DNA of 64,000 nt. It comes from a virus. The notes below the pieces were generated by a model. The model did not search any database. It was not told the origin of the DNA and saw only the letters and a program-made list of their open reading frames with translations. Within the stretch, counting starts at the first letter, position 1; the number at the start of each line of letters is the position of its first letter. Shown piece by piece: positions 6,001 to 52,585 of the stretch. Location: the IMG/VR virus record IMGVR_UViG_3300023174_000096, positions 32,001-96,000 of that record; one strand, 5' to 3'. Made by a program: the position numbers and the translations under genes.

Positions 6001-8397
6001 CCTGCGATCAGCGGGTGGCTCGATGCCCCGGTGACCCAGACACACGTCTTCCCGGCCACGGGGAGGGTGTATGTGATCGCGAACGAATCGGGGCTGAACA
6101 GCACCGTTACGGCGGTGTTTCAAGACTCCGTGGTGAGCGCCGACTACACCAGCTTCGACCCTTCGACCAAGAAGTTCTCGGGGCTGGCGAACTTCCAAGA
6201 CGCGCTGGGGGCGATCCTCACCGCCGCGCAGTTCAACAACATTGTCGCGGCGGGCATGAAGGTCTCTGGCTTCACCCTCCTCCCGATGGCCCCCCACAGC
6301 GACGCCATCCCCGCGAACCTTCCGGGGTATACCAGCGTCGCCGCCCCCATCTCAGTGTTTGGCATCCGTCAACTGCGCGTGTCCCGCGACGTGAGCGGTG
6401 TTACCTACACATGGAACGCCGACGTTTCGGGTGACCTGACGGGACCGGGCTCGACCGTATCCGTGTACCAGCGGTTGAAGGTGAGTAGCGCGTCGTTCGT
6501 GACCTCCCTCGACCTCGCCGTGTACGACGAAGTGCCCGGTGGGATCGAGATCGACCTCACCACCCCGCAGTGGGAGAGCCTCCACAAGCCCGTGGGCGCA
6601 CCCTTCGTGCCCACGGGCACGCAGTGCATCCTCCCGGGTGACCGCTGGGCGATTGACTACTCGGGCGCAGCGGGCATCTACGTCGAGCCGTCCTTCCCAC
6701 GGGACACCAACGACATGGCCTCGGGCGATGTCAACGTGGTGGACGCCGGGAACTCTCTCGCCGCGGGTCAGGTGGGCACGCGACGGCTGGCCGACTACTT
6801 CCCGGCCCCCGCCCCCGGTGACTACCAGATCGAAGCCACGGAGATCGAAGTGCGCCGCCCCCGGCGCTTCCACGCCCTCGGCAACGACTTCGGCGCAGCC
6901 CTTCAGTCCCTTCGCTACTGCTACGAGATCCGTCGCGGCATCGTCGCCACGGTCATCTCTTCGGGCGGGTACAGCATCCTCACCGCTCTCCCTGTCAACG
7001 GAGACGTGCCCCCGACCGTAACAGGCGGAACGTCAGCAACCCAACTGGGCGACTTCACCAGCAAGCTCGTGAACGTGAACCCCGGCGACGAGGTGCGGTT
7101 CATCAACGCTTCGGGGGTGATCACCGCACGGGCAGAGGTGGTGAAGGTCACGGGCGCGCTCACCCTCACTCTGTCCCGCAAGGTGACGGTGAACCCCGGG
7201 GACCGCTTTGAGGTGTACCTGAAGGTTCCGCCCGTCCCCCACGAGCAGTCCAACGAAGAACTTCTCGGGTACGCGACGGACCGGGTGGTCGTCAACCGCC
7301 CGGTGAACTACACGCCACCAACGCAGACGGGCGGGAGGGTCACCACCACCAACATCCTCACCGACGCAGGGGTGAACTTCACCGACTTTGGCGTCAAGAA
7401 AGATGACATCCTGCTGGTCGATCCCGCTGGCCGTCTGGAAGGCACGACCGGACCCGCCTCGCCCGTCCAATTCGGTCGCCGCCCCTACGGAGACAACAGC
7501 GTCCCGGCGCGTGGGGCACCCGCGTACACAGCGGGCAGTCCCGTGGTGGCCGACGACAACCGGGGCTACTTCAAAGTCACGGATGTCACCACGACGACGC
7601 TCACCGTCCAAGCCATCGGCAACCTCGCGGGCAACGTCGGAGGCGACGTGGTGTTCGGCCCAGCGGGCAGCGAGTACGCCATCTATCCCACCATCCACGG
7701 CTCCCTCGGTTCCGGCGGGGCCAACGAGGGGCAGATGGACCTCCGCGTCACCGCCCCGGCGAACGGGTCCAACAAGTTCACCGGGTACGCCAGCATCGAG
7801 CCTTTCGCGTACCGGGTGATCCGCCCTACCACCCTGCTCTCCCCGGAGACCGTCGAGCTCATCCTCGCCATGCGAGAGAGAATGCTGTCTTGGGCGGAAG
7901 AGATCCGCACGGTGCGGTTCAAGTACGGGACGTACTTCATTTTCCAGCGGGATCGTCACATCACCGACCTTGGGACGACCACCGACCCTGAGAGCGGGCT
8001 GGGGCTGCTCACCAACCCGTACCTCTTCGGGATCGTCGGCAACTGGGCGGTGTCCCCGTTCGCCAACGTGCGGGACTGTCTCTCCATCCTCGACCGTCGC
8101 TTCTGGTGTCTGGACTTCCGTCTGGACACGCTCACCCCGCCCTATGGCATTTCTGCCACGGACTACGCCAACTTCGCCAACGGCGTCGGGCGTCCCGTGC
8201 TGGTGGACCGGGTGAATGAAGCCCTCGACGGGCGCGACAAGCTGCGGCGCACCCGGTACTCGTGGCTGGACCTCCGGGTGAACCGGGTGACCGGGACGCT
8301 GGAGAGCATCCGACGTTTCGACGCCGAGCTCCCCAAGCGCAGGGCGGAAGCCGAGCAAGCTCTCGCGGCTGTAGAGTCCGTGGAGAAGCTGCCGTGA
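1..8397 (+). CDS. Giant virion structural protein (>2790 aa; tail/baseplate-associated), 5' end truncated by window edge
   Basis: The frame is open from base 1 (GEFFALSGVASP...). Sequence is T/G/V/P-rich and beta-rich, with a recurrent 'LTDxxxxFxxxxVxxGDxL' module, strong GC3 bias and a helical C-terminus. Confidence 0.8.
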   Translation, partial: GEFFALSGVASPNTVRLSTTVKPWKDAVYQFDQSRFAWLSNFSFAGQVQSPVSAIDLGNAGVVPSTFYPAMDGYLKVSAKGGAAQSLTLGTDFLVPEGSGTALLIDRVGPEVLNGYRGSVTGSTLTDTSVDFTTIAQVGDRLKVTSGGSTGSYTVASSTPTTLTVVNPFPVASTGNVSWELYRGVNYTDPTKIDPSILADAVFTEFNHLGGETFKVRLYTSLGTAGGTLDTVDLPTATSGRVLTVRFGTTGTTTSQLTVLTSTELGALANGSLFVPTTNPRFATDKFSVVVGTKVFVNGVDLLPVASFSPTIPANQIEYLTTTGELGFGATVEADYQSATVVYRQEVLNPANISQGTGEISPFTGAVGLSATDIAANTGSTVYLVDLQTYEEVFLNPILGSFTLQRPVKAGQLVEVTYTRAKPDSGLPYPNATTPEVVTEFLPVFIRRETATRVNQQVYSFNAGGRTVDTDVEPSVLVNANLVSYGVPKGVNFNFSDNTFTLVKSVLDPATRVLITYAVYEATGGETSYTVSKGPVWRPPFQLRANTTSFDLKGNRTSELTSGRILRLGNYLTYIQSAAYNGTTKTKVEIYPAPTRDVGSLAPSDPPVNLVTDRAITPLVNGVVTVAANGLLPKLTDAYGLASVPKFQPVTKGQNVVRFEGDLTKYAVTGHVIELFGIPFLVAKSDFVEGAFTDITLGSPSPVQMVWTSTLPTSTVRISVRPIYPVGATTFIGAGSLVGTEPYEVVLCEGTAPGVTLTEGRDYQIDQTAGTLTLLEPRQTGMPTGASLRFYRTVQDTLAPFVFQGVVQYPRVAASAGFIDPPSEANGRLGATLTATYTFDSPDSFYARSLPLPSYITETARSIVQGVTRKAAGTNPSVGGFPKNSPSTQGTAGLVSERQDLVSRDRVTRTFLRYYNGIITSFEQVLETINGNPVGDRDGKLRLWMGMGDKWTPPGYEDGITGAVNPRNVWNEVWNGFRTSPIALLPSDPIVSPYGASLTGGALTGTALSASALGQLQGLQYRAIKNDVDDVVLNGLTGTTVALSGIIRFKVTSYGVYRGLSQPSAFSRLFPERADAFTTTDPGIGYNPTTGSVGVYSYGKLDLDLFGSPPSISFQSTTGNSIARLANPVRGNITSVLGATVQDRLARARILAYYPNGVSGVPGASGRPVFVATVLPLDKFPLLPNGQPDTAKLVAGAGISGLYDLTSGDPDLHTPPFNPGDQLALGTPDGTGYSVGWTGATVTVNGNPVFPGVFVDSVIQGCYLTVKSYSAANNFVPVLNPATLVRLTSGNTGTTLTAERGDTLFVVPTTGAFTAIASPPASALTPTQLQTFTASLPGYRVGTDVDLDGRAGALVDATLPSFSDPTIFGLKEITGQRPPSPLRNLQARVTFQNGDVSPSNIPALRGLSRLDSGDYSLPYYQIGPTELSVLGDTFPLGIAVVGAESPNPPVGNPAPTGFADYSVEAVYPDEILGNGGFVSATDPTNPATLKGTVALNPGYVSHTGTGDVKPYDIVYVQEGTGGGSFPAGATGIRTVGAVNYAANVIEPPRFVTRTSPGAGSSVLVENIQAWIDPSYLTGMTVKEDTNVIAPNVRTTFTLTGVPTSEMVFDNGTGGGVLPTPVGGFNDYFTVGNKPNKIRLKLTKNSTGNLVTASSVVLELTSQNPNITLCGFSVSGDNGTTPQGGTAYFLTQQIVVDTGAPFFNFPAFGTPTTPAPGVTEIGPMNVGIDADSGNSVSGGTETLYVGDDRLTLYGPIDTRTARARGATTPGGTSIECRLTTRGFEAGIFDSTLGITSAFSTLNEITEVNGGTALTFAPRAGITPYGVGTFTAPGVGTLKVMAYEGHGNTPINGTDVTYSAAPSSRQDESGPILLTDALSDRVDNPPYTSLVNFAPRIVDRFVVDTAAVTRGLMSRVLPGDIVTAKNSSLSYPLPRANTKAGTHLVRAVLVPTLGFTYETRETFTTPDTNGAYGDGWMPFTFPTVTGFNLGTLTLAVSDIAQLPAISGWLDAPVTQTHVFPATGRVYVIANESGLNSTVTAVFQDSVVSADYTSFDPSTKKFSGLANFQDALGAILTAAQFNNIVAAGMKVSGFTLLPMAPHSDAIPANLPGYTSVAAPISVFGIRQLRVSRDVSGVTYTWNADVSGDLTGPGSTVSVYQRLKVSSASFVTSLDLAVYDEVPGGIEIDLTTPQWESLHKPVGAPFVPTGTQCILPGDRWAIDYSGAAGIYVEPSFPRDTNDMASGDVNVVDAGNSLAAGQVGTRRLADYFPAPAPGDYQIEATEIEVRRPRRFHALGNDFGAALQSLRYCYEIRRGIVATVISSGGYSILTALPVNGDVPPTVTGGTSATQLGDFTSKLVNVNPGDEVRFINASGVITARAEVVKVTGALTLTLSRKVTVNPGDRFEVYLKVPPVPHEQSNEELLGYATDRVVVNRPVNYTPPTQTGGRVTTTNILTDAGVNFTDFGVKKDDILLVDPAGRLEGTTGPASPVQFGRRPYGDNSVPARGAPAYTAGSPVVADDNRGYFKVTDVTTTTLTVQAIGNLAGNVGGDVVFGPAGSEYAIYPTIHGSLGSGGANEGQMDLRVTAPANGSNKFTGYASIEPFAYRVIRPTTLLSPETVELILAMRERMLSWAEEIRTVRFKYGTYFIFQRDRHITDLGTTTDPESGLGLLTNPYLFGIVGNWAVSPFANVRDCLSILDRRFWCLDFRLDTLTPPYGISATDYANFANGVGRPVLVDRVNEALDGRDKLRRTRYSWLDLRVNRVTGTLESIRRFDAELPKRRAEAEQALAAVESVEKLP

Positions 8398-17792: not shown

Positions 17793-18512
17793 TCAGTGCC
17801 AGACGGAGAACTCGTACTTGTAGTTGATCTTGTTGGCCTTGAGCCAGTCGTCGAAGTCGTCCCAAGAGATGCCCTTCAGCGCGTCCGGGCTGGCCGTGAG
17901 CATCTGGTAGAACTTCCGAGCCGCCGTGGCGGACGACGACTTGATGATGGTGTAGTGCGGGTCCGACTGCTCAAAATCGCTGTTGGGCGAGTAGGACTTG
18001 AACTCCAGCCACTCGGCCTTCACCGAGAAGTTCTTGCCGTACACCGTGATGGGCTCGACGTTCTCGGGCACCACCGAGAGGTAGTTCACGAGGTCGTCGT
18101 ACCACTTCACGCCAGAGAGGTCTCGCATCGGGTCGTACCCCGGCGTGGCGTGGGCTCGCACGTCGGCAAGCACCTTCTCGCTGGTCATCGCGCCGAAGAT
18201 CTTGTCCTTGATCGTGTCGAACGAGTCCATCGCGGAAATCTTGCCGTAGTGGCGGATGAGGTTGATGGGCATCCACGCATCGAACTTCGTGGAGAAGTAG
18301 GGGTTCCGCAACTCGGACACGCGGAGCTTGCGCTTCCCCTTGGCCGGGAGCTCCTCCAGCTTGAACTCGTAGCGGTCCCACGTCAGACGCCACCCGTCAC
18401 CGACGAGGACACCTTCCATGGCTCCCGCCGTCTTGAGGATGGGCAGGAGGTGAGGGCGAAGGGTGGGTTGTTGATGGGCCAGACGGATCAGCTTGGAACG
18501 GAGTGTTGACAT
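17793..18512 (-). CDS. Leader-bearing hypothetical protein (putative internal head protein)
   Basis: Begins [29 protein letters not shown]|G. Confidence 0.75.
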
Positions 18513-19365: not shown

Positions 19366-20556
19366 ATGAAGACCATGACCGCCGCCCTCCCCAATCCCGT
19401 GGTTCACTACGAGATGATCCGCAAAGACCCGCGCAACCCGCTGCGGGTGTTCCCCGAAGACATCAAGTCGAAGATCCTGCACGACCCCTTCAACAAGCAG
19501 GGGGACAACCCCCTGCCCGCGCAGACGGTCAGCGCCTACAGCACCACCTACAACATGATGCGGTCTACCGTCGCTTACGAGCGCGGAGGGCAGCAAGTGG
19601 TGGTGCTGGGGCCACGGATGCAGGAGGCGTTCGCCAACACCTCGCTCTCCGAGGTGAGTGCGGAGCACATCCGTTTCCCCTTCCCCTGCTTCTACCTCGC
19701 CACCCCGCAGTCCAAGCTCAAGGCGTGGGGCGGAAGTGACACCCTGTGGCACCGGGTCGAAGGTGCCTACGTCATGGAAGACCCCGCCGAGCCGGGGGTG
19801 ATGAGCGTCCTCATCTGGGGCGCGGCGAACGAGCGGTCGCAGTTTCCCACGGACGACGCGACGTTCTGGTTCTCCATGCGTCTGGGCCACGGCGGGACGG
19901 TGGACCTCGACGGCGACCTTGAGAAGCGCCTCGACTTGGCCGAGCTTCGCGAAGGCACCCTGCGGAACATCGAACTGGAGTCCGCCGTCACCCGCATGGA
20001 CCTCGACGCGCGGGTGAACGGGGTGCTGGACAACCGGGGCGCGAACATCAGTGACCGTCTCGCGAACATCCCTCAATCCGAGGAGCTCGCGCGGGAGGTC
20101 AAGGCCATAGTCAAGGCGTTCCTGCGGGTGGTGATCAACACCCTGCTGTACATCAACAGCGCGTCGTGTGAGACCAAGAGCGCCGACAACGATGGGAAGC
20201 GCCGCGAGCTAGAGACTGCGCTGGGGCGCAAGAAGCACAAGAACGGCAAGGACGCCAAGAAGCTCGCCCGCGACCTCGACGCCCTCCCCAAGTACCGGGT
20301 GACGTGGATCGGCCCGACCATCGAAACGAGCGCGGGCGGCGACACAGACCTCACGGGCACCCGCACCGTGAAGGGGCACATTCGCCGGGGCCACTGGCAT
20401 ACCTACCGGGTGGGGCCGCGAAAGACCGAGGCTGGCGAGAGGATCGACCCTGCGATGCGAAAGGCGTCGCTGAAGTGGGTCGCCCCGGTGTGGGTCGGCG
20501 GCGGGGTGCCCGAGGACAAGCCCCGCGTCTACGGGGTGCGCGAGCCCGTCACTTGA
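19366..20556 (+). CDS. Hypothetical phage protein with C-terminal HxRRGHW motif
   Basis: GHIRRGHWHTY...KWVAPVWVG; true start at ATG 19366, directly within GGGCGTAATG. Confidence 0.75.
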   Translation: MKTMTAALPNPVVHYEMIRKDPRNPLRVFPEDIKSKILHDPFNKQGDNPLPAQTVSAYSTTYNMMRSTVAYERGGQQVVVLGPRMQEAFANTSLSEVSAEHIRFPFPCFYLATPQSKLKAWGGSDTLWHRVEGAYVMEDPAEPGVMSVLIWGAANERSQFPTDDATFWFSMRLGHGGTVDLDGDLEKRLDLAELREGTLRNIELESAVTRMDLDARVNGVLDNRGANISDRLANIPQSEELAREVKAIVKAFLRVVINTLLYINSASCETKSADNDGKRRELETALGRKKHKNGKDAKKLARDLDALPKYRVTWIGPTIETSAGGDTDLTGTRTVKGHIRRGHWHTYRVGPRKTEAGERIDPAMRKASLKWVAPVWVGGGVPEDKPRVYGVREPVT

Positions 20557-21205
20557 TCGCGACGTAGGGGTTCTCCATGAGGTAGTAGTTCATCGGCAAC
20601 TGATAGAGGTTGCCGCCGAAGTCCAGAACAAAGTTCTGGCCCTTCACTTCCCGCACGGTCACCACGTCACCGGGGTTCAGCGTGAAACCGCTACGGTATG
20701 AGACGGGCTTCAGCATCGTCAGCAGCATCCCGGGCTTCAGCGGCTTGGCGTGTTGGACGCCCGCTTCCAGCATGACGAAGTACCGGGGGAAGTAGCTGCG
20801 GATGCTCTTCTCCAGTTGGTCGTGGCTGTCCGAAAGCCCCAGAGCGCGAGCCCACTCCGGGCGTTCGTAGAGGGGGATGCTGATCGCCACGTCCTCCTCG
20901 TACCAGTAGTAGCCGTTGGAGAACTCGGCCATCTTGGTAGCCGCAGCCGTGAGCATCTTCTGGGCTACGCCCTTCGCCACGGCCAGACCACCGTGGCCAG
21001 CCGTCCCGTACAGGCGAACTCCACGAGCCGCTTCCTTCCCGTACTGGGCAGGCCCCCAAGGGGTCCAAGGGGCAGAGCGGTCACCGTCGGGCCAACTCAA
21101 GGGGCCAGCGGCGACCTTCCCGTTGTCCAGCAGCGGGAGGAGGTGTGGGCGAAGGGCGGGCGTCTCATGTGCGAGACGAATCAGCTTGGTGCGAAGGGTG
21201 GTCAC
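20549..21205 (-). CDS. Leader-bearing protein with DUF7007-like domain and SH3-like tail
   Basis: Leader MTTLRTKLIRLAHETPALRPHLLPLL..KVA|A; TPWG..Q...TAGHGG...WYEED; AGGAG RBS. Confidence 0.75.
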   Translation of the reverse strand: MTTLRTKLIRLAHETPALRPHLLPLLDNGKVAAGPLSWPDGDRSAPWTPWGPAQYGKEAARGVRLYGTAGHGGLAVAKGVAQKMLTAAATKMAEFSNGYYWYEEDVAISIPLYERPEWARALGLSDSHDQLEKSIRSYFPRYFVMLEAGVQHAKPLKPGMLLTMLKPVSYRSGFTLNPGDVVTVREVKGQNFVLDFGGNLYQLPMNYYLMENPYVAIK

Positions 21206-28063: not shown

Positions 28064-29398
28064 CTACAGCGACTTCGCCGCGAGGTCTGCCAAGGGGCTG
28101 CGGACGCCCTCACCAAGGTAGACGGACCCTGCGAGGGGGCTGTCCCGAGTCATCTTCGCGGCGTGTACCAACCCGTTGCTGAAGGCATCCAGAAACGGGT
28201 CGTCGATCTGCGAGGGGTCGCCACACAGGACCACCTTGGTCCCGTTCGCAGCGCGAGACACCACGGTCTTCACCTCGTGGGGGGTGGCGTTCTGGATCTC
28301 GTCGAAGAGCAGGAACGCCCGAGGGATCGACCGCCCACGGATCGAGTGCATGGGCTGGATCTCCACCTGTCCCGATTGGACCAGTTGCTCCCAGTTCTTC
28401 TCCTTGACGCCCCGGTGCTTGTTCTCCTTCGCGTCGGTGGTGAGCAACTGGTCGAGGTTGTCGAAGAAGCTCATCATCCACGGGTGGAGCTTGTCGCTCT
28501 CCGAGCCCGGGAGGTACCCGAGGTCACGGCCCATCGGGACCACGGGCTTCGACAGGATGATCCGGTCGTAGACGCGATCTAGCTGCTGGAGGCCCGCTTG
28601 GAGGGCCATGAGGGTCTTGCCTGTCCCCGCTGCGCCGAGCAGCACCACCAAGTGGACCTTGGGGTCGAACAAGAGGTCGAGCGCCATGCGCTGCCCGTCG
28701 TTCCGGGCGTCGAACTTCAGTCCTTTCTGGCGAGACACTGGACGTAGTGCAGTGCCCGTCCAGCGGAACAGGCGGTGCGTGCCGTCCCCCTCCAAGAACT
28801 TGATGAACTCGTTGGGCTTCACCCCGGCGAGGTTCACATTTTCGATTACATCCGGCGGGTCGGCTCCGTAGAGAGGCTGAAGGGCATCCGGGTTGGGCAA
28901 CGACCGCTCATAGACGCCAGAGGGCACCTCGTTGGGGTCCACCCGGTCTTTCCGGTAGTCCTCTGCCTTCACCCCCTTGGCAGCAGCGAGGATGCGGAGG
29001 TTCACGTCCTTGGTGACCAGCACCACGGTTTTGTTCGTGAACCGCTCTTGGAGCTTCAGCGCACTCCCGAGGATGAGCAGGTCCATCTTGCGGGAGAGAG
29101 TTGTGTTTTGCAGACTCTCAAAGTGCTCGTCCTGCCCGACGACGTAGAACACGCTCCCGGTCTTGGGGTCAGCGATCCCATCGGGGCTGTTGACATCTCC
29201 CTGTGAGACGATCCGGGCGATGCGCCGCGAGGCCACCCGCGCAGAGCTCGCCACCTCTCGGCGCTGCGACACCTTGAGGTCGTCGAGCTCCATCACCACG
29301 AAGATGGGGATGGCCACCGACGTGTCTCGGAAGGATCGCAGGGCTTCGGGGTCGTGGACGAGGACGGACGTGTCGAGGACGTACAGCTTGTTGTTCAC
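28064..29398 (-). CDS. phoH: PIN-PhoH (PhoH2/YlaK-like) ATPase
   Basis: PIN motifs YVLDTSVL...ELDDLK...LVTKDVNLRI; PhoH motifs GAAGTGKT, LGYLPG, RGRS, DEIQN, GDPSQID. Confidence 0.92.
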   Translation of the reverse strand: MNNKLYVLDTSVLVHDPEALRSFRDTSVAIPIFVVMELDDLKVSQRREVASSARVASRRIARIVSQGDVNSPDGIADPKTGSVFYVVGQDEHFESLQNTTLSRKMDLLILGSALKLQERFTNKTVVLVTKDVNLRILAAAKGVKAEDYRKDRVDPNEVPSGVYERSLPNPDALQPLYGADPPDVIENVNLAGVKPNEFIKFLEGDGTHRLFRWTGTALRPVSRQKGLKFDARNDGQRMALDLLFDPKVHLVVLLGAAGTGKTLMALQAGLQQLDRVYDRIILSKPVVPMGRDLGYLPGSESDKLHPWMMSFFDNLDQLLTTDAKENKHRGVKEKNWEQLVQSGQVEIQPMHSIRGRSIPRAFLLFDEIQNATPHEVKTVVSRAANGTKVVLCGDPSQIDDPFLDAFSNGLVHAAKMTRDSPLAGSVYLGEGVRSPLADLAAKSL

Positions 29399-30501
29399 AC
29401 GCCCTCCAAGAGGGGTGCGAGGCTAGGTAGGCCGAAAATGTGGGGGTGGGTCTTCAAGTTCCTACCGGGGGTTTCCCATCGGTCGATCACCGACGAATAG
29501 CGGGAAGAGAGTGCTTCCCACAAAGGGTCACGCATAGACAAGACCGTGACGGGCTGGCCCGTCTCCCGCACGAAGGCGTCGATCTTGGCTTGGGTTGCGA
29601 CCGTACCGTCCTCGTGCCTCCACCCCTTGAGCTCTACCCATCCGGCGGGAATCCCGTCCGGGTGATGGGCCAGTAGGTAGAAGTCGGGGGTGTAGTAGCT
29701 GCCGTCCGAGAGATGGAACAGCTTGGGCTCGTAGTTGTAAGGCACCGCAAGATGAAGGAGCACCCGGGCAAAATTCGCCTCGAACGTGGACCGACAGTAG
29801 TGCGGGATGCCCGCACGGAATCCGCAGATGCCACGCCCACCACCTTGTGGTGCGAGGGTGCCGTTACGGATGCGGGACTCAAGGCTCTTGCGACGGGTCT
29901 CTGGGTCCCTCATCCCAATCATCGCACCGTCAGAGAATCGAAGGCGAAGGGCGTCAGATAGCTTTTCTGAATGGTCGGGTCTGGAACGAATTTCTGCAAG
30001 GATGACCCGTCCTCTGCGGCCAAGAGCCGCGCGATATTCTGGAGTGAGGTTATGGGACTTCCCCTTCCCACCCCTTGAGACGGCTTCTCGATGAGCTTCC
30101 GTTAGCGGCTTCCCGCGCCATGCCCCAGCGGCCTCGACCAGACGGGCGGACTGCATCTTCCGCTCGTCCTCACTGGACCACCTTGCCTTCGCCTTCTCGG
30201 CCATCTTCTGCTTGCAAGCGTCCGAGCGAGTGCGAGCTCCCGGGGCGTCCGTGAGGGCATCGGGATAGGCGGCGAGGTAGTCATCACGGGTCATCCCGTG
30301 AGCCGAGGCCAAGTGCGGTGTCAGCATTCGTCGAGACACCCCGCACAAGAGGCAGGAGACACGGTCGGTGGCTGGACTCCCCCGCTTCTGGAGGGACGGA
30401 GCCTTCCGGCACCCGTCGCACTTCACGTTGCGTGTCGCGGGTTTGTACCCCTCAACCTCGACACCACACGCCTTGCACCGGGGCATTTTGGCAGCATCCA
30501 T
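29395..30501 (-). mobile_element. Free-standing homing endonuclease (Zn fingers + NUMOD3-like repeats + PD-(D/E)xK nuclease)
   Basis: CKAC/CDGC/CLLC..HL...H; PLTEAHREAVS and SDACKQKMAE repeats; RSTFEANFA..YEP..YTPDF...VELKG; atypical codon use. Confidence 0.75.
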
Positions 30502-31255: not shown

Positions 31256-31561
31256 TCAGACGGGAGGTTTGCCGCGAAAGGCACGGATGCTGGGGGCGTT
31301 GGTTTCCACGACCTCCTTCGACCCGTCTTCCCACTGGATGAGAGACTTGAAGGGCTTCGCGGAGGTCATCTTGAGGATCGTCCCGTAGACCGATCCGGTT
31401 CCCTTGGCGTCCGACTTGACCACAGAATACCCGACCTTCCAAGGTGAGGTGGCACCCTTCCCCGGAATAGCCGCTTCTTTGAGGAGGGGCAGGAGGTGCG
31501 GACGAAGTTCGGGCTGTTGGTGCGCCAGCCGGATGACCTTGGAACGGAGAGTGTTGCTCAT
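31256..31561 (-). CDS. Leader-bearing small protein with SH3/KOW-like barrel
   Basis: [30 protein letters not shown]|A...WKVGYSV...IQWEDG. Confidence 0.75.
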   Translation of the reverse strand: MSNTLRSKVIRLAHQQPELRPHLLPLLKEAAIPGKGATSPWKVGYSVVKSDAKGTGSVYGTILKMTSAKPFKSLIQWEDGSKEVVETNAPSIRAFRGKPPV

Positions 31562-44539: not shown

Positions 44540-44914
44540 TTAGCGGGCGAGTTTCGTCAGAGCCTCAAAGGCTTCTTGCATCGGACGGCTCTGCGAGCGA
44601 CGGCAGTCCATCAGGCTGTGTTGGACCTTGTCAAGGATCTTGACCAAGAAGTCATGACCCTGCCCGGGGTTCTGTTCGGCCCCGTCGAGGACGTGGGCGA
44701 ACGCAAGGCGCGCGTTTTCTTCAGCCATCCGCAGGTAGGCGATGGCGTCGTTCATGGCTTCCTTCGCCGCCCCGTAATCCGACTTGCTCGAATCGACCGA
44801 CTCGAAGACCATCGGTCCCGCCGTCTTGGTGAGGAGGGGCATGAGGTGCGAACGGAGCTCCGGGTTGGTGTGAGCCAGCCGGATGATCTTGGAACGGAGT
44901 GCTTGATCGCTCAT
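44540..44914 (-). CDS. Leader-bearing helical protein
   Basis: MSDQALRSKIIRLAHTNPELRSHLMPLLTKTA|G. Confidence 0.75.
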   Translation of the reverse strand: MSDQALRSKIIRLAHTNPELRSHLMPLLTKTAGPMVFESVDSSKSDYGAAKEAMNDAIAYLRMAEENARLAFAHVLDGAEQNPGQGHDFLVKILDKVQHSLMDCRRSQSRPMQEAFEALTKLAR

Positions 44915-44955: not shown

Positions 44956-47900
44956 TCAAACGAGGCCCGACCAGCCCTTGAGGGAGGCGAGGATCTTCTT
45001 GGCGGCGGACGCCCCCTCCGTGACCTTCACGGGCTTGGTGGGGGACTCTTCGTTCGTGCGGTCGATCACCGTGAGGTAGACACTGGTGTCACCGAGGGTG
45101 CATTGGGACAGCAAGAACTGCTGGTACTCGGGAGCCCCCTGCGCGTTGTCCTTGGGCTGGGGGTAGACGGTGAGGTACACGCTGAAGGCCATCCCGTCCA
45201 CGGTGCGGTCGCCCACCTTGCAGGGGACGAAGTGCGGGTGGACGGTGATCGACAGGGAGTTGGGGAAGCGCATCCCCGCCCGCACCTCGTCCACCGCCGC
45301 GCTGGAGATCAGTCGGAGATCCTTGGGCATGATCTTCTGCGAGAGGGCCGAGAGAACCTCCCGCGCCTGTGCCCGGAACGCCTCAAACCGCTCGTAGAGC
45401 ATCTGGGCATCCCGAAGCGCCGCGCTGATGGTGGCGTCACTTGGGTGCTCGGTGAGGTAGGTGCGGCAGTGGGCGATCACCCGCTCGGCGTGTCGCATCC
45501 CATGCTCAGACTTGGCGAACACCTCCGTCTGCGAGTGCAGGGTGAGCGCCGCGATGCGCCCCACCACGGGCATGGGCACCGTCTCCGCGTAGGTGTCCAG
45601 CACCGCTTGGATGTCCGACGCCAGTGCCTCCAGCGTCTCCAGTTCGCCCGTGATCGTGGCCACGGGGTCGATGGCATCGAGGTGCTGGGACACGACACGG
45701 CGAACAGATGCACTTCTCACGGGTACCTCACAGACAGTCGGAGGGGGGTCTTGGCGACCCTTCCAGAACACGGTGACGATCTCGATGCGCCCTGCGTCGG
45801 TGGCGAACACCACTTTCAGCCGGGTCTTGGGGTCCACCCACTCAATCTTCTCTTGGGAGAGCAGGGCTTCGTACTGGTCGGGGTTCACCTTCTGGAGCCC
45901 CTGCGCGTAGACGATGAACGAGTTCAGCGCAGCCTCCACGTCCTTGACCGTCACGGATCGGTAGTCCATGCGGAACTGGGCGTGGGGGAGGATGGTGAAG
46001 CTCTTGAAGCCCGACCCGCTCTCAGTGGTCAGCGGGTAGACCTTCCGGGCGTCCGGGTTGGACAGATCACCCGTCTCGGCGTCGTCGGTGAGCTTCTCCC
46101 GCAGAGCGGGGTTGCGGATCGCGCGGTTGATCCGGTCCACCACCTTGCACGGGCCACCGTTGAGCCCCAGCGGTGGTGACAGGTCGGCGGTCTTCTTGGC
46201 CTTCTCGTCGGCGGCTTCCATCTGACCCTTCACCTTCTCGGCCCACGCTCGTCCGGGGTCACCACCCCAGATCAGCCACGACACGTTGCCCTTGTCGTTC
46301 CACGGCTCACCCTTGTTCTCCGGGGCGACGCCCTTGTTCTTCTCGTGGCGCGAGAAGAACGCGGTCATCTGCTTGATGGTGTCGGGCGAGATGTTGTCCC
46401 GGTTCTTGAGGTTCACCGCCCGCTGCACGCCGCTCCCGATGCCCTGCTCGGCAGCTTCCGCCGGGGTGAGCCCGCCCTTGTTCGACGGGCTGGCTTTCTC
46501 ACGGTACTCCAAGCCCTTTTCCGCTGCGTCGGCCACCGACTGCGGGGGCTTGAAGTCGATGTGCTCGTACTTCTTGGGCACGTCGGCGGTTCGGGTGCGG
46601 CGGTGGTTCATGGTCACGTCTTGATGATGAAGTTCACGGCGAGCCACGGCTGCATATTGGCGTGCGCGCTGCCACCGCCCGTCGAACCCGTGGTGAACGT
46701 GTGCGTGTAGACGAGCGAACCGTTGGGCGACACGGACGGGGGATGCGCGGAGCCTCTCTCGCACGCGGTCGTTGAGTTTCACGTCTTGGTCGGCCAAGTT
46801 CGGGTCCGACAGGAGGAACTCGCGAGCAATGGGGACAAGGCTCGCGCGAGCCCTGCCCGTCAACGAGAACTCTTGAATGAGCGCCATGTTGTCCACTGCG
46901 GGTTTCCGCAGGGCTTCAAGGTACTTCCTTGCCTCGTCACTGGACCATCCGCTGGTGTTCTGCTTGAACTGCTCGCGCTCGTTCGGCGTCAAAAAGTCCA
47001 GCACCCTCCCCGCGATCCCGATGTCGGCAAGCTCCAACAAGAGCTCGACCGTATGGTTGCCGTTCGCCAGTTGCTTGGTGAGGTATGCCGCGAACGGGGG
47101 GTTCTCTTGCACCATCTCGACGATCACGTCGAGTAGGCCAAGGGAACGCATCACTTTGAGGCCCATCGTCGCCTTGGGTGACTTGAGGATGTCCCCGACG
47201 AGGATGTTCCCGACAGCTTCCCACGGCATATTCTTGAGCTTCGCGGCGTTGCGCCTCACAGAGGCCATAGCATCGGGCGAGATGGTCAAGTCATACCGCA
47301 GCAAGAACTTCAAGACCCGGAGCATCCGAGTCGGGTCGTCGCTGAAGGTCTTGTCGGGGTCCACGGGCGTCGAGATGAGCTTCTGCTCAAGGTGCTGACG
47401 ACCCAGCCCCGTGAGGTCAATCACTTCGGCCTTGTCAGGGCCGTTGGCGAGGTCATGCATCCGCCACAGCAGGGTGTTGAACGTGAACTCTCGGCGGAAC
47501 ACATCCTCTTCAATGGTCGCGGGGGACACGTCCGTGGGCTTGTATCCCTTGCCTTTGCCCCCCGCACCCTCGTAGGACTCCTTGCGGGCGTTGGCGATCT
47601 CGATCACCTCGCCCTTCAGGTTGATCCCGTCGAGCAGCCACTCCCCCTTCACGGTGAGGATCACCACCCCGTACTGGTTGGTCGCGAGGTTCGTCGGGAC
47701 AGGGATGGCGTCCACCACCTTTCGGGCGAACCACTCTGAATCCCGGCCCGCCGACACGGAGTCCACCACCACGTCGATGTCCTTGATGGGCACACCGAGG
47801 ATGAAGTTCCGCACGGCACCGCCGACGACGTAGACGTGTCGGGCGACGCCAGCGTCACGGGCCACCTCAGACAGAAAACTCATCAACGCGATGGACTTGG

Positions 47901-48825
47901 CGTGTGCCGAGGATGCCATCAGGTACCGGGAAGCGAGCTTCACCGGGTCCACGGACTTCCTGACCTGTCCGGTCTTGGGTGACAGTTCCACGAGCTCTTT
48001 GCCTCCGTTGCGGTAGCTAAACGCCCTCACCGTGATCTTGGGCGAGTAGTCCTTGGGCAGACGGTCCTCCAGCCCCTCGTAGTCCATCTTGCCGGGGATG
48101 ACGTAGAAATCCAACTCCCGGTCGGTGAGGTTCATCACCATCTGGGAGGTGGTCGCCATCGAGTCCGTGTCTCGCACCGGGTCGTTGTGGGTGCGCGGCC
48201 CTTCGGAGCGGTTCCGCATGAGGTCCGGGCCAAGGTCCGTGGGCGTCTTGCTCTGACGGAGGATCTGGGTGGACTTCTCCTTGCGGGCGGCGGACGAGAG
48301 ATACCCCTCGCCGTCCGTGTAGCCCGTCCCGCCCGTGTCGCGCCCGTGGTTGGTGCGGACATGGATCTCACTGCCCTCCAAGGGCTTGGTGACGCAGTCC
48401 CCGTTGATGAGCTCGACCGAGAACGCCCGGTTCGGGTCACTCACGAACGAGTGCCCTTCCAGCCCCCCAAGGTGGGAGCACAGGGAGTCAATGGCGTCCT
48501 GCACGGTGCGGCACGAGAGGGCCTTGAGGATGCGGGCACCGTCGAGCGCCTTGCCCTTCTTGCCCTTCTTGTCCTCGACAGCCGTGGCGGTGCCTTCGGC
48601 CTCATCGAGGCCCACGGCGAGCGCCGCGTTGGCGATCCCGATCCCGTGCTCGTTCAACCCCTCGCACCACCCCGTGACGTTGTCGCGCATATACGCGACC
48701 TCGACGCCGTCGAGGAGCTCGCGGACGAGGGTGACTCGTGGGGTGTACTTGCGGTCACGGTTCTTGAGGAGAGCCCTCTTCCCGTCCCACACACCAGCAG
48801 CAATGACGCAAGCGAGTCTGTCCAT
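44956..48825 (-). CDS. Polyprotein: Ntn hydrolase (C45-like) + CCA-adding/poly(A) polymerase-family nucleotidyltransferase + WGG domain + BECR/DUF4258-like RNase + helical domain
   Basis: C6..KNRDR..EGLNEHG..RTNH; VGGAVRN..DID, RREFTFN, DDPTRMLR; FFSRH..WLIWGGD; HAQFRM..R.V...IVTVF. Confidence 0.85.
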   Translation of the reverse strand: MDRLACVIAAGVWDGKRALLKNRDRKYTPRVTLVRELLDGVEVAYMRDNVTGWCEGLNEHGIGIANAALAVGLDEAEGTATAVEDKKGKKGKALDGARILKALSCRTVQDAIDSLCSHLGGLEGHSFVSDPNRAFSVELINGDCVTKPLEGSEIHVRTNHGRDTGGTGYTDGEGYLSSAARKEKSTQILRQSKTPTDLGPDLMRNRSEGPRTHNDPVRDTDSMATTSQMVMNLTDRELDFYVIPGKMDYEGLEDRLPKDYSPKITVRAFSYRNGGKELVELSPKTGQVRKSVDPVKLASRYLMASSAHAKSIALMSFLSEVARDAGVARHVYVVGGAVRNFILGVPIKDIDVVVDSVSAGRDSEWFARKVVDAIPVPTNLATNQYGVVILTVKGEWLLDGINLKGEVIEIANARKESYEGAGGKGKGYKPTDVSPATIEEDVFRREFTFNTLLWRMHDLANGPDKAEVIDLTGLGRQHLEQKLISTPVDPDKTFSDDPTRMLRVLKFLLRYDLTISPDAMASVRRNAAKLKNMPWEAVGNILVGDILKSPKATMGLKVMRSLGLLDVIVEMVQENPPFAAYLTKQLANGNHTVELLLELADIGIAGRVLDFLTPNEREQFKQNTSGWSSDEARKYLEALRKPAVDNMALIQEFSLTGRARASLVPIAREFLLSDPNLADQDVKLNDRVRERLRASPVRVAQRFARLHAHVHHGFDGRWQRARQYAAVARRELHHQDVTMNHRRTRTADVPKKYEHIDFKPPQSVADAAEKGLEYREKASPSNKGGLTPAEAAEQGIGSGVQRAVNLKNRDNISPDTIKQMTAFFSRHEKNKGVAPENKGEPWNDKGNVSWLIWGGDPGRAWAEKVKGQMEAADEKAKKTADLSPPLGLNGGPCKVVDRINRAIRNPALREKLTDDAETGDLSNPDARKVYPLTTESGSGFKSFTILPHAQFRMDYRSVTVKDVEAALNSFIVYAQGLQKVNPDQYEALLSQEKIEWVDPKTRLKVVFATDAGRIEIVTVFWKGRQDPPPTVCEVPVRSASVRRVVSQHLDAIDPVATITGELETLEALASDIQAVLDTYAETVPMPVVGRIAALTLHSQTEVFAKSEHGMRHAERVIAHCRTYLTEHPSDATISAALRDAQMLYERFEAFRAQAREVLSALSQKIMPKDLRLISSAAVDEVRAGMRFPNSLSITVHPHFVPCKVGDRTVDGMAFSVYLTVYPQPKDNAQGAPEYQQFLLSQCTLGDTSVYLTVIDRTNEESPTKPVKVTEGASAAKKILASLKGWSGLV

Positions 48826-50878: not shown

Positions 50879-52558
50879 CTACTCCTCGTCCTTGAACGTG
50901 GGGGTGAACACGGGCTTCTTGCCCTTCGGTGCCTTCTCCTGCACCCTCATCTTCTCTCGGGCCTTCTCGGCGCGCTCGCCCTTAGCCATGTCGTGGGCCT
51001 TGGGTCGGGCCATGCACTTGAAGGGGGTCTTCCCGCCCCGGGTGAGGTCTTTCCAGTTCGGGTCGTCCGTGAGGTCGCCGCACGGCCCGATGATGTCACC
51101 GGGCTCGTAGGTCTTCTTGGTCCCGTCCTCGCGGGTGATCGTGCGCTTCACGGGCGAGATCGCCACCCAATCTCCCCACTGGGCCTCACCGGGTGATTTG
51201 CCCTTGCCCTGACCGTGGCCGCTGAACCACTCGTCTAGGCCCCCGTGACCTACGTCTTTTTTGGCCTTTCCCTTGGCGGACAGGTAGCGGGACGCAACAC
51301 GGGCGGCGCTTGCGAAGCGCCCACGGTCCTTCTTGGCGAGGAACGCCTTGAACCGCTCGATCTGATCGCGGGTCATGTCCCGGCCCAGAACGAAGTGCGC
51401 GAACACCTCCGCGAAATCCTCCTCCGTGGCGGTCCCCCCGTACTCCGACACGGCGGCGACTTCTTTGTAGAAGCTGTCGAACCGAGCGCGGTCGCCCGCG
51501 TCCATGAACTTGAAGTAGTAGCGGTGCCCTAGCTCATGGATGAGGAGCTCGACCAAGAAGGGCTTGGGCAACAAGAACACCACGACGTGGTCGGGGCCGA
51601 TGACGTAGTGCGCCCCCACTCCGAAGTGCTTGCCCAGCGGGTTCTCACCACCGCACTTCGGGCACCCGACGAAGATCGGGCCATACCAGAGGTCGCCAAA
51701 GCCCTTCTGGTCGAGCAGCGCCTTGGCCTTCTGGAAGTAGGGGATGTAGTCAGACAGACCCCGGGGGTCACCGGGGTCGGGGCGGGTGATGAGGTTACGG
51801 TCGGGCTCGCCGTCGTACACCAGCTTGACCTTCCCGATGTCGAACTCCAGCAGGATCTCGTCGGGATCGTAGGACGAGCCCCCCGAGTATTTGCTGAGAA
51901 ATGTGGTGATCGCCCGCAGGAGTTTGCCCGAAAGGATGTCCTCGACCTTGGCGAGTGCCTCCCGGGCGTAGTCCTCGTACCCCTTCAGCGCAGCGGCGAA
52001 CGGGTCGTCAGGGTTCACCCGCTGGTAGAAGCCCAGTATATTCTGCCCGTCCATCGTGTAGGTGTGCGTGCCGGGGGTCATTGCATCCCGGACGTGCTGG
52101 AACTTCCCGAGGTCTTCGTCGAGAAGGTACCTCGCTTCCTTGAGCTCATCACGGACTTTGAGTCGAATCGCCTCAAAGACGCTGGACGGGTCCATTCCAC
52201 GGGGCAGCAAGCCCTTCGTGTAGGCCATGTGCTCCCACAGGCGCTCTAGCTCCCGGTCCCGCAGGGACTTGAAGTGCGCGATGAGGTCGTCGAGTGAGGC
52301 GTACCGTGGCTTGGGCGCAAAGGTCTTCTTGACCCACGCACGGATACCCTTGACCCATGCCGGGTCGATCTTGGTCTCCTCCCCGGCGGACTTCTTCGCC
52401 CGCCAACCGCCGCCCTCGTCCTTGTAGAGCTTGAGGGCGTGCCCGACCGCGTAGGCACTGGGCCACTTGGTGTAGCGTTCCTTCGCCTTCGCCTTGCACT
52501 TCTCCCAGAGCTCGGGATTCGTGGGATCGTTGTCGTCGGCGGCAGTGAAGCGGTCCAT
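50879..52558 (-). CDS. Polyprotein: split DUF5872-like halves flanking a helical domain and a zincin metallopeptidase
   Basis: WPSAYA...YKDEGGGW; LIHELGH...VSEYG...EEDFAEVF; GGLDEWF...WV...CG...KC. Confidence 0.8.
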   Translation of the reverse strand: MDRFTAADDNDPTNPELWEKCKAKAKERYTKWPSAYAVGHALKLYKDEGGGWRAKKSAGEETKIDPAWVKGIRAWVKKTFAPKPRYASLDDLIAHFKSLRDRELERLWEHMAYTKGLLPRGMDPSSVFEAIRLKVRDELKEARYLLDEDLGKFQHVRDAMTPGTHTYTMDGQNILGFYQRVNPDDPFAAALKGYEDYAREALAKVEDILSGKLLRAITTFLSKYSGGSSYDPDEILLEFDIGKVKLVYDGEPDRNLITRPDPGDPRGLSDYIPYFQKAKALLDQKGFGDLWYGPIFVGCPKCGGENPLGKHFGVGAHYVIGPDHVVVFLLPKPFLVELLIHELGHRYYFKFMDAGDRARFDSFYKEVAAVSEYGGTATEEDFAEVFAHFVLGRDMTRDQIERFKAFLAKKDRGRFASAARVASRYLSAKGKAKKDVGHGGLDEWFSGHGQGKGKSPGEAQWGDWVAISPVKRTITREDGTKKTYEPGDIIGPCGDLTDDPNWKDLTRGGKTPFKCMARPKAHDMAKGERAEKAREKMRVQEKAPKGKKPVFTPTFKDEE

Positions 52559-52585
52559 CACCGCGCGCGGGCGATAGAACGGTTA

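Follow-up and report, generated by a model that had tools for sequence, protein, structure and literature searches.

Why does a single phage gene string together five unrelated protein modules with the same few short motifs, and would its product act whole or in pieces? The gene, P0001, lies within positions 32,001 to 96,000 of the IMG/VR virus record IMGVR_UViG_3300023174_000096. This stretch of 64,000 nucleotides is called the window, and coordinates refer to it unless stated otherwise. An earlier reading of the letters, the original prediction, had proposed unrelated modules joined by recurrent short motifs, and all five modules and the quoted motifs are present. We lean, with somewhat better than even confidence, towards P0001 being a cargo polyprotein that would be processed at its junctions by the phage head protease and loaded into the capsid. 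The reading frame is intact and strongly biased (third-position GC 0.86). Its parts are as follows, with residues numbered along the protein and a down arrow at each candidate cut.

44956..48825, minus strand: P0001, the whole five-module polyprotein, an open reading frame (ORF) of 1289 codons (1289 amino acids, aa)
48811..48825, minus strand: leader MDRLA, 5 residues, ending in R-x-A immediately before the Cys6 nucleophile
47962..48810, minus strand: module A, residues 6-288, Ntn hydrolase, AAT/isopenicillin-N acyltransferase-like (Pfam, AlphaFold2, Foldseek)
47914..47961, minus strand: junction 1, residues 289-304, tag-like KLASRYL followed by L-M-A↓S (breakpoint 296)
46747..47913, minus strand: module B, residues 305-693, class II CCA-adding tRNA nucleotidyltransferase, head motif GGAVRN...DID
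46708..46746, minus strand: residues 694-706, an RLRA↓S site and an RVAQRFA tag, the C-terminal tail of the original A+B gene
46612..46707, minus strand: filler, residues 707-738, an out-of-frame remnant of the 3' end of a tail-collar gene plus a former intergenic region
46585..46611, minus strand: residues 739-747, MNHRRTRTA, the former start codon and leader of a C+D+E gene, ending R-T-A↓D
46186..46584, minus strand: module C, residues 748-880, YEHIDFKPP...FFSRH...WGGD (phrog_2859, E 1e-12)
45718..46185, minus strand: module D, residues 881 to about 1036, beginning DLSPPLG..GGPCKVV directly after KKTA↓, weakly DUF4258/BECR-like
45673..45717, minus strand: junction 4, residues 1037-1051, RSA↓S, tag-like VRRVVSQHL and LDA↓I (breakpoint 1037)
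44959..45672, minus strand: module E, residues 1052-1289, a three-helix bundle and a beta sheet (predicted structure)

The domain order of the original prediction holds, and its first two assignments, an Ntn hydrolase and a class II nucleotidyltransferase, are supported by Pfam and Foldseek. The Pfam AAT match of module A is below cut-off (E 0.0026). Its AlphaFold2 model, with a predicted local distance difference test (pLDDT) score mostly >80, has the alpha-beta-beta-alpha sandwich and matches isopenicillin-N acyltransferase 2x1c (E 8e-7) and 3gvz (E 7e-7, target TM 0.63) in Foldseek. Cys6 starts the strand at residues 7-13 of this model and is retained by at least 90% of the homologs in the alignment. 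Module B matches PolyA_pol (PF01743, E 9e-15, above cut-off) and phrog_2244 (E 1e-31), carries catalytic head motifs of the GG-x-VRD and DxD type (VVGGAVRNFILGVPIKDIDVVV) and is modelled with pLDDT mostly >85. The full head-neck-body-tail fold is recovered against 6qy6 (E 7e-14, about 400 aligned columns, target TM 0.51-0.58), and matches of module B to the NCBIfam pcnB and CCA models were all far below their cut-offs. Judged by motifs and predicted fold, module B is a complete class II CCA-adding-type nucleotidyltransferase. Seven relatives (P0037, P0052, P0073, P0077, P0083, P0091 and P0115) carry an intein (PF14528/PF14890) in this enzyme at one and the same site, around query residues 433-452.

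Modules C and E are each real modules, as had been claimed, but fold and profile searches gave no function for either. Module C travels as a unit among relatives at 62-89% identity; in protein-language-model features it comes closest to clusters of stand-alone phage proteins, 103-124 aa long, and an ESM Atlas query with it returned unnamed phage clusters only. The RNase-like call for module D fared worse. Its DUF4258 match is a weak lead below threshold (E 0.11), and at E 0.01 DUF4258 was matched by 0 of the 20 sequences of an alignment in which most have module D (A2). The model of module D, of moderate confidence, is a helix with a three-strand sheet. Sequence searches of modules A and C-E against PDB chains gave no matches. 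Foldseek with VIA-align on the C-D-E model gave generic three-helix-bundle or CorA-like matches to the helical part of E only; this model is long and of low confidence, and the fold search hardly probed modules C and D.

To see how the modules behave in evolution, we turned to relatives, of which a search of 5.8 billion proteins yielded 193 longer and 895 shorter ones. Across more than 200 relatives from metagenomes, the modules recur in many orders and combinations and mingle with some 15 further enzyme families. Examples of partners are phosphatidylserine decarboxylase (PSD), pyrophosphatase (InPase), topoisomerase IB, 2H/LigT, PAP2, superoxide dismutase (SOD), HAD_SAK, C39-like peptidase, GGACT, acetyltransferase and inteins. 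The comparison of orthologous loci that the original prediction had proposed was run, and modules swap, are gained, are lost, split and fuse exactly at the motif boundaries. Similarity between P0001 and 120 homologs breaks at residues 296, 694, 744, 879 and 1037, and the shuffled units end at about 290 for A and span 305-693 for B, about 745-880 for C, about 878-1040 for D and from about 1040 for E. Extra breakpoints at residues 433 and 452 reflect the module B intein.

The limits of free-standing modules fall in the same places. Where B is the first module, the protein opens with Met plus residue 305; where B is the last, the protein stops at residue 693. Proteins led by C open with (M)xVPKKY, for which homologs show the N-termini MFRRRADTPKKY and MAVPKKY, and proteins led by D open after ...RA↓DLxPPLG, as in MDLALRVAARYLRA↓DLQPPLG. 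Almost always, [K/R]-x-Ala stands directly before each module (RTA, KTA, KKA, RMA, KSA). In P0001 itself the junctions read MDRLA5↓C6, VKLASRYLMA304↓S305, RLRA694↓S..VRVAQRFA, RTRTA747↓D748, KAKKTA880↓D881 and RSA1039↓S-VRRVVSQHLDA1051↓I1052. The worry that the motifs might fall inside folded domains is answered by AlphaFold2, which places the junctions in low-confidence linkers outside the confident domains (pLDDT <50 at residues 289-305, 698-712, 735-746, from 878 on, and 1022-1051).

Family-wide, [KR]xA[SADGCN] lies within 15 residues of 304 of the 716 breakpoints, compared with 103 +/- 10 at random positions, and an RVAxRYL-type tag lies near 56 of them, compared with 9.7 expected. The candidate cut sites named by the original prediction thus do sit at the boundaries, but [K/R]-x-A↓ describes the position better than the longer strings it quoted. 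On these sequences, the candidate site is better described as [K/R]-x-A↓, mostly followed by a small residue, with RVAxRYL as a separate, portable tag. The boundary motif is conserved at every junction between units, as in viral polyproteins that are processed by a protease.

A demand for a cut comes from module A. Ntn hydrolases require their nucleophile as the free N-terminal residue, and therefore a cut before the module A Cys is needed for activity. At protein N-termini this Cys follows the leaders MDRLA↓C, MKRSA↓C and MDRTA↓C, and copies inside a chain are preceded by GKTA↓C, ARRA↓C and AKRA↓C. A small residue stands before the nucleophile in every module A copy, and [K/R]-x-[A/S] in most, both N-terminal and internal.

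The tag is a distinct element. VKLASRYL, VRVAQRF and VRRVVSQHL are variants of one motif, R-V-A-[S/A]-R-[Y/F/W]-L, of which relatives contain 96 non-redundant copies. It measures 7-10 residues, is amphipathic and often stands beside a [K/R]-x-Ala site and is itself flanked by such sites, typically with K-T-A-S before it and another Ala two residues after. It occurs between modules, at N-termini (M-x3-5-RVAARYLxA↓D...) and as a C-terminal tail (...KTASPVRVAARFLSRR before the stop). Of the 84 stand-alone relatives of module B, 63 carry the tag core at an end: at the N-terminus alone in 42, at the C-terminus alone in 19 and at both in 2. Interior windows of the same size yield 1.6 +/- 1.2; these were counted with a core regular expression and the interior-window control, as a strict 5-bit hidden Markov model (HMM) threshold undercounted. 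The closest large relative, G001 (266 kb, 59% of its genome), holds 20 strict tags where 5.2 +/- 2.3 are expected, among them C-terminal tails of stand-alone topoisomerase-IB-like and HAD-like enzymes and tags on several small proteins. The nucleotidyltransferases of phage G and Tunturi_5 are ordinary stand-alone enzymes with no recognisable tag. Tag codons vary at synonymous sites, which argues that selection acts on the peptide and not on the DNA. An address label would be expected to behave like this, with a single enzyme carrying one tag at whichever end and a chain carrying tags between its modules. When the G001 capsid protein was modelled in complex with the HAD enzyme's tagged tail, the prediction scored 0.28 (mark 0.34), which speaks neither for nor against binding.

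A second tag, of 25 residues and two helices, begins with T/A and is followed by K-x-A. Five proteins on P0001's own contig (G000) and about ten in G001 carry it, and some of the G001 copies are internal. These five, four of them unrelated proteins with the tag at the N-terminus, and a second polyprotein of the same system are as follows.

17793-18512, minus strand: protein with the N-terminal 25-residue tag
20549-21205, minus strand: protein with the N-terminal 25-residue tag
31256-31561, minus strand: protein with the N-terminal 25-residue tag
44540..44914, minus strand: gene directly downstream of P0001, with the long tag ALRSKIIRLAHTNPELRSHLMPLL at the N-terminus and then TKTA↓G
G000 19475-20044, outside the window, minus strand: protein with the 25-residue tag at the C-terminus
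50879..52561, minus strand: P0122, the second polyprotein, with DUF5872, KKSA↓G, an HExxH zincin-like module, the tag RFASAARVASRYLSA and a small C-terminal module

P0122 lies two ORFs upstream of P0001. Its tag is of the RVASRYL type and its small module contains a Cys. The G001 ortholog of P0122 has 201 aa and is without the zincin module, a clean gain or loss of a cassette.

How did five modules come to share one frame? G001, 84% identical, holds three genes here: A+B, a gene with a tail-collar domain (Pfam Collar, E 2e-22, at locus L001) and C+D+E. Its A+B gene ends in ...PVRVAQRFARLSSQH and a stop, and its C+D+E gene begins MNHRRTRTA↓DVPKKY. The A+B gene of L001 and P0010 ends ...PVRVAQRFARLSSQ(H/P) before the stop. 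Relative to G001, P0001 has a clean in-frame deletion of 648 bp, joined at nucleotide 2118 of the gene (window 46708). Residues 707-738 are filler because this deletion removed the tail-collar gene in frame. The second junction, quoted in the original prediction as VRVAQRFA...RTRTA↓D, does contain both motifs, but it is a composite in which the C-terminal tag of the first gene is followed by about 32 out-of-frame residues and then by the second gene's leader. In strains 99% identical, A+B is still a protein of its own, with 704-706 aa (P0130, P0131). The five-domain architecture is not an old, designed unit. A strain 98-99% identical has A-C-D-E with B absent (P0002), and a third relative (L002) has A alone and a separate PSD-C-X-D-E. 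Two other studies supply contigs that bridge the fusion point (328 nt with 2 mismatches in X5; 226 nt with 0 mismatches in X6), and a 2856-nt contig of X2, which may be the source sample, also spans it. Because contigs of two independent studies bridge the join, we take the fusion to be natural and not an assembly error. Loose ends in the bridging samples show A joined to C and a variant that most likely runs on into the collar gene. On this comparison, five-module P0001 is a recent in-frame fusion of the neighbouring polyprotein genes A+B and C+D+E, and a filler flanked by a tag and RTA↓D is what a processing system would tolerate.

A candidate for the cutting enzyme comes from the head genes of relatives. 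Pfam S77, Gp23 and HK97-capsid models found no matches on P0001's own contig or in G001, whose head genes were then located with PHROGs. The G001 head block contains terminase, portal, a head maturation protease (phrog_18299, E 2e-8) and a capsid protein (phrog_2522, E 2e-48), and embedded in it are a 2H and topoisomerase-IB polyprotein and the gene of a tagged HAD enzyme. The G001 proteins richest in [KR]xA[SADGC] are two acidic, scaffold-like proteins of 508 aa (14 vs 3.9) and 240 aa (7 vs 2.3). Proteins of 147 aa and 722 aa complete the four most enriched, and all four lie inside the head block. Tunturi_5, in which a head protease is annotated, has a similar enrichment in gp332, its scaffold-position protein (12 vs 3.3), and in gp328, annotated as an ejection protein (16 vs 4.2). 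The high-GC relatives G001, LR745208 and Tunturi_5 share a capsid N-terminus that reads K-[T/S]-A↓A-G-R, compared with E-T-E↓E-G-R in phage G (L028 13265-14146; L029; L030; L031), whose scaffold-position protein gp21 is without K-x-A. This difference may be a switch of protease specificity within one capsid lineage. The ...EH... and ...SMGC motifs of the G001 protease look HK97/S78-like when read by eye.

Several further observations concern this block. The embedded polyprotein has 1156 aa (L028 3334-6804; G001 93334-96804), with a 2H RNA-ligase-like module, topoisomerase IB and unassigned parts, a tag-like RVAARY between its first two modules and ARRFLSYSRRGR at its C-terminus. The protease gene (L028 8071-10827; G001 98071-100827) contains a LAGLIDADG intein directly after ...STLSMG. 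This motif, probably the region of the catalytic Ser, aligns with ...YMSMGC in the protease of Tunturi_5. A likeness of the C-terminal region of this protease to the long tag was unsupported by the long-tag HMM. A transposase gene (phrog_506, E 5e-118) lies on the opposite strand between the portal gene and the tagged cargo genes (L028 873-2213, minus; G001 90873-92213).

The relationship of these phages matters here. The P0001 contig is a 105.5-kb IMG/VR fragment judged 24% complete, so that the genome would be roughly 440 kb. P0001 DNA is present in freshwater and lake metagenomes of a dozen studies. The G001 capsid protein shares 93.5% identity with its counterpart in an uncultured phage of 485 kb, 48% with that of Tunturiibacter phage Tunturi_5 and 38% with that of Bacillus phage G. 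The genome that hosts P0001 is that of an uncultured freshwater phage of the phage-G / Tunturi-5 capsid lineage. A comparison of P0001 with LR745208.1, which has the capsid 93.5% identical to that of G001, gave no match and carries no weight either way.

The proposed course is that the P0001 chain would be synthesised whole and recruited by its tag to the assembling head. There the phage's head-maturation protease, of HK97/S78 type, would cleave after Ala and release the Ntn hydrolase with Cys6 exposed, the CCA-adding enzyme and three further proteins. The freed proteins would probably enter the host with the DNA and might, for example, repair tRNA 3' ends hit by host defences. We infer the head protease as the cutter from the enrichment in the scaffold-like proteins of G001, the parallel in Tunturi_5 and the motif before the module A Cys; capsid loading and injection would follow from the same reasoning. 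Because the junctions would resolve the chain, gene fusion, fission and module exchange would be free of cost. This would also explain the fusion in P0001 itself, with its filler bracketed by a tag and a cut-type site. A wider proposal, to which we give slightly less than even weight, is that the phage-G / Tunturi lineage uses a general "address plus scissors" code. An RVAxRYL-type or 25-residue helical tag plus [K/R]-x-Ala would be read by the head protease, and any enzyme, alone or chained in whatever order, would be loaded, freed and injected. Fusion, fission and filler would be neutral, and arsenals of accessory enzymes would evolve as cassettes shuffle freely, a polyprotein strategy as yet undescribed in tailed phages.

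Several points weigh against processing by the head protease with packaging. The literature yielded no cleavage product, virion proteome or packaging datum for this phage or its relatives. Ntn hydrolase and PSD modules are able to self-cleave, and for that reason these modules need no trans-acting protease. The tag is not obligatory, its strict form being confined to 55 of the 121 polyprotein relatives. The P0001 locus lies between baseplate and replication genes, outside the head block, and the head protease, capsid and scaffold genes are seen in relatives only, with none on the 105-kb contig. The breakpoint counts come from mutually related homologs, are therefore not independent and do not amount to a probability. 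[KR]xA carries little information and is not enriched in P0001 as a whole (8 vs 5.1), so that only its position counts there. Finally, P1' is not always small, as LDA↓I precedes module E.

It is possible that the same junctions are cut in the cytoplasm by another protease, be it the HExxH zincin of P0122, the C39-like modules or a host enzyme, with the products acting within the infected cell and left unpackaged, and the tag serving as a docking or localisation signal. The position of P0001 outside the head block favours this. The HExxH...E..AE module of P0122 is bracketed by the same junction type, an HExxH module stands directly before module B in P0021, P0023, P0024, P0103 and P0116, and processing by an embedded metallopeptidase has been proposed for polyvalent proteins (PMC5512222). 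However, most polyproteins of the family have no peptidase module, Pfam support for the P0122 zincin is weak (Peptidase_Mx, E 0.057), and the motif is most enriched in scaffold-like proteins near the head protease and capsid gene. G001 uses the same junction code with no HExxH module in its 266 kb (59% of the genome), and we rejected the HExxH module as a universal processing enzyme on that absence. We regard cytoplasmic cutting as rather unlikely. Improbable, in our view, is that P0001 is active uncut as a multi-enzyme "Swiss-army-knife" fusion, its motifs being flexible linkers or interaction helices and its terminal tags assembling a complex. Phage RNA-repair fusions with CCA-adding, 2H and HAD domains are known (PMC7824862), and HAD_SAK and 2H domains are found in P0001 relatives. 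Yet the partners have unrelated functions (SOD, PSD, topoisomerase IB, PAP2, Ntn hydrolase), module order is free, an Ntn hydrolase inside a chain would be inactive unless cut ahead of its Cys, and 32 frame-shifted filler residues are tolerable only if excised or irrelevant.

Less probable still is a role of the tag as a degron or timing signal for a Clp/Lon-type protease, or as a recombination linker at the level of DNA. Degrons, like RVAxRYL tags, function at either terminus, ClpXP is encoded by phage G, a member of the same capsid lineage (PMC12484599), and recombination breakpoints coincide with the motifs. Against a linker, synonymous codon variation means that the tag DNA is not conserved; a degron would have no obvious rationale between the enzymes of a polyprotein or on a dozen unrelated enzymes per genome; and the tags are bounded by cut-type sites. 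An assembly artefact that joined two genes, which the original prediction had named as a refutation, is scarcely credible to us. It is right that separate genes were fused, as the closest relative has two genes split by the tail-collar gene and strains 99% identical (P0130, P0131) encode A+B alone. But X5 and X6 from other studies, and X2 too, bridge window 46708, the deletion is exactly 648 bp and in frame, and alternative forms coexist as loose ends, all of which points to a natural variant. Processing by the head protease remains the reading we prefer.

We next considered how P0001 compares with known systems. The original prediction had likened it to the polyvalent proteins of phages and plasmids, and the likeness is apt: both are large phage proteins with several unrelated enzymatic or effector domains and extremely variable architectures among relatives. 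Relatives of P0001 contain phage-type domains listed for polyvalent proteins (InPase, 2H, BECR-like, metallopeptidase). Among the polyvalent hallmarks (MuF, MPTase, ArdC-N, DarB-type helicase/methylase, PBECR, InPase, 2H), P0001 itself has only the weak DUF4258 match (E 0.11). For the polyvalent proteins of phages and conjugative elements, autoprocessing by an embedded MPTase was proposed and no junction code named (Iyer, Burroughs, Anand, de Souza and Aravind 2017; PMC5512222). Processing into units and delivery with the DNA are proposed for both. Unlike polyvalent proteins, the P0001 family has [K/R]-x-A at every junction, often a portable tag, the same tag on single enzymes, and mostly chains with no peptidase.

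In phage T4, the capsid targeting sequence (CTS) of IPI-III and Alt is removed by the prohead protease gp21 (PMC9026906), and the propeptides of SPN3US and phiKZ ejection proteins are the giant-phage analogue (PMC10052503). As in T4, a short helical address peptide here ends in what would be a head-protease site, and unrelated cargo would be loaded, trimmed and ejected. T4 and phiKZ sites, in contrast, end in Glu ((L/I)-x-E, A-x-E) and their tag is N-terminal on single proteins, whereas here P1 is Ala and P3 basic or Leu, the tag is N-terminal, C-terminal or between modules, and the cargo would include multi-enzyme chains. PF03420, the S77 protease family, had no match in G000 or G001. With its Ala ends, tags at either end and S77 not found, the P0001 system would work like the CTS but is not a member of the T4-type CTS cargo. 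The Dar proteins of P1 are a further parallel for address-label behaviour of the tag.

Herpesvirus assemblin cuts its (V/L/I)-x-A↓S maturation and release sites after Ala and before Ser, and is a head protease of the same broad fold class. YLMA↓S of P0001 presumably resembles these sites. Assemblin substrates are the protease and the scaffold and include no enzyme polyproteins. With the polyproteins of RNA viruses and African swine fever virus (pp220, pp62), P0001 shares a short boundary motif, and it would also share the encoding of several mature proteins in one ORF and a virus-encoded protease. It differs from them in that module content shuffles between close strains and that the modules are accessory enzymes, not core replication or structural proteins. 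To our knowledge, the polyprotein strategy is not known for tailed phages. The Swiss-army-knife RNA-repair fusions of Burroughs and Aravind (PMC7824862) likewise combine a CCA-adding enzyme with 2H, HAD_SAK and phosphatase domains, likely for the repair of damaged tRNA. They are treated as uncut, unlike the P0001 family, which adds enzymes unrelated to RNA and cut-type junctions. In the literature we found no K/R-x-A cleavage code, no phage enzyme polyproteins with such a code and no cleavage data for phage G or the Tunturi phages. The P0001 locus adds the natural fusion through a filler, the argument from the Ntn Cys and the statistics of either-end tags on stand-alone enzymes.

If the junctions are truly cut, tailed phages would employ polyproteins in a manner considered characteristic of RNA viruses and a few giant viruses of eukaryotes, and a specificity for Ala with a basic P3 departs from the Glu-specific T4/phiKZ paradigm. 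The extreme domain shuffling of polyvalent proteins would then be explained, and there would be a sequence rule for predicting virion-delivered cargo among the huge-phage genes that lack an assignment. Such a natural pairing of tag and site could also serve to load foreign proteins into large capsids. A CCA-adding enzyme carried as pre-made cargo would mean repair of tRNA 3' ends in the first minutes of infection, and would point to host defences that attack them. Tunturi_5 is a cultured relative with the same code, which makes the hypothesis directly testable.

The remaining genes of the window fit a very large tailed phage, with baseplate J, sheath-initiator, thymidine kinase, PhoH-PIN and DNA polymerase genes around P0001. 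A giant ORF of about 3538 aa occupies window 1-8397 on the plus strand and starts about 2.2 kb upstream of the window. Other long ORFs of the window encode 1890, 1175, 1123 and 1076 aa; the 1123-aa product is the baseplate-J protein, and those of the others that were searched had no family match. The PIN-PhoH fusion protein (28064-29398, minus strand) adjoins a 368-aa protein with a ROS/MucR zinc-finger domain (29395-30501, minus strand).

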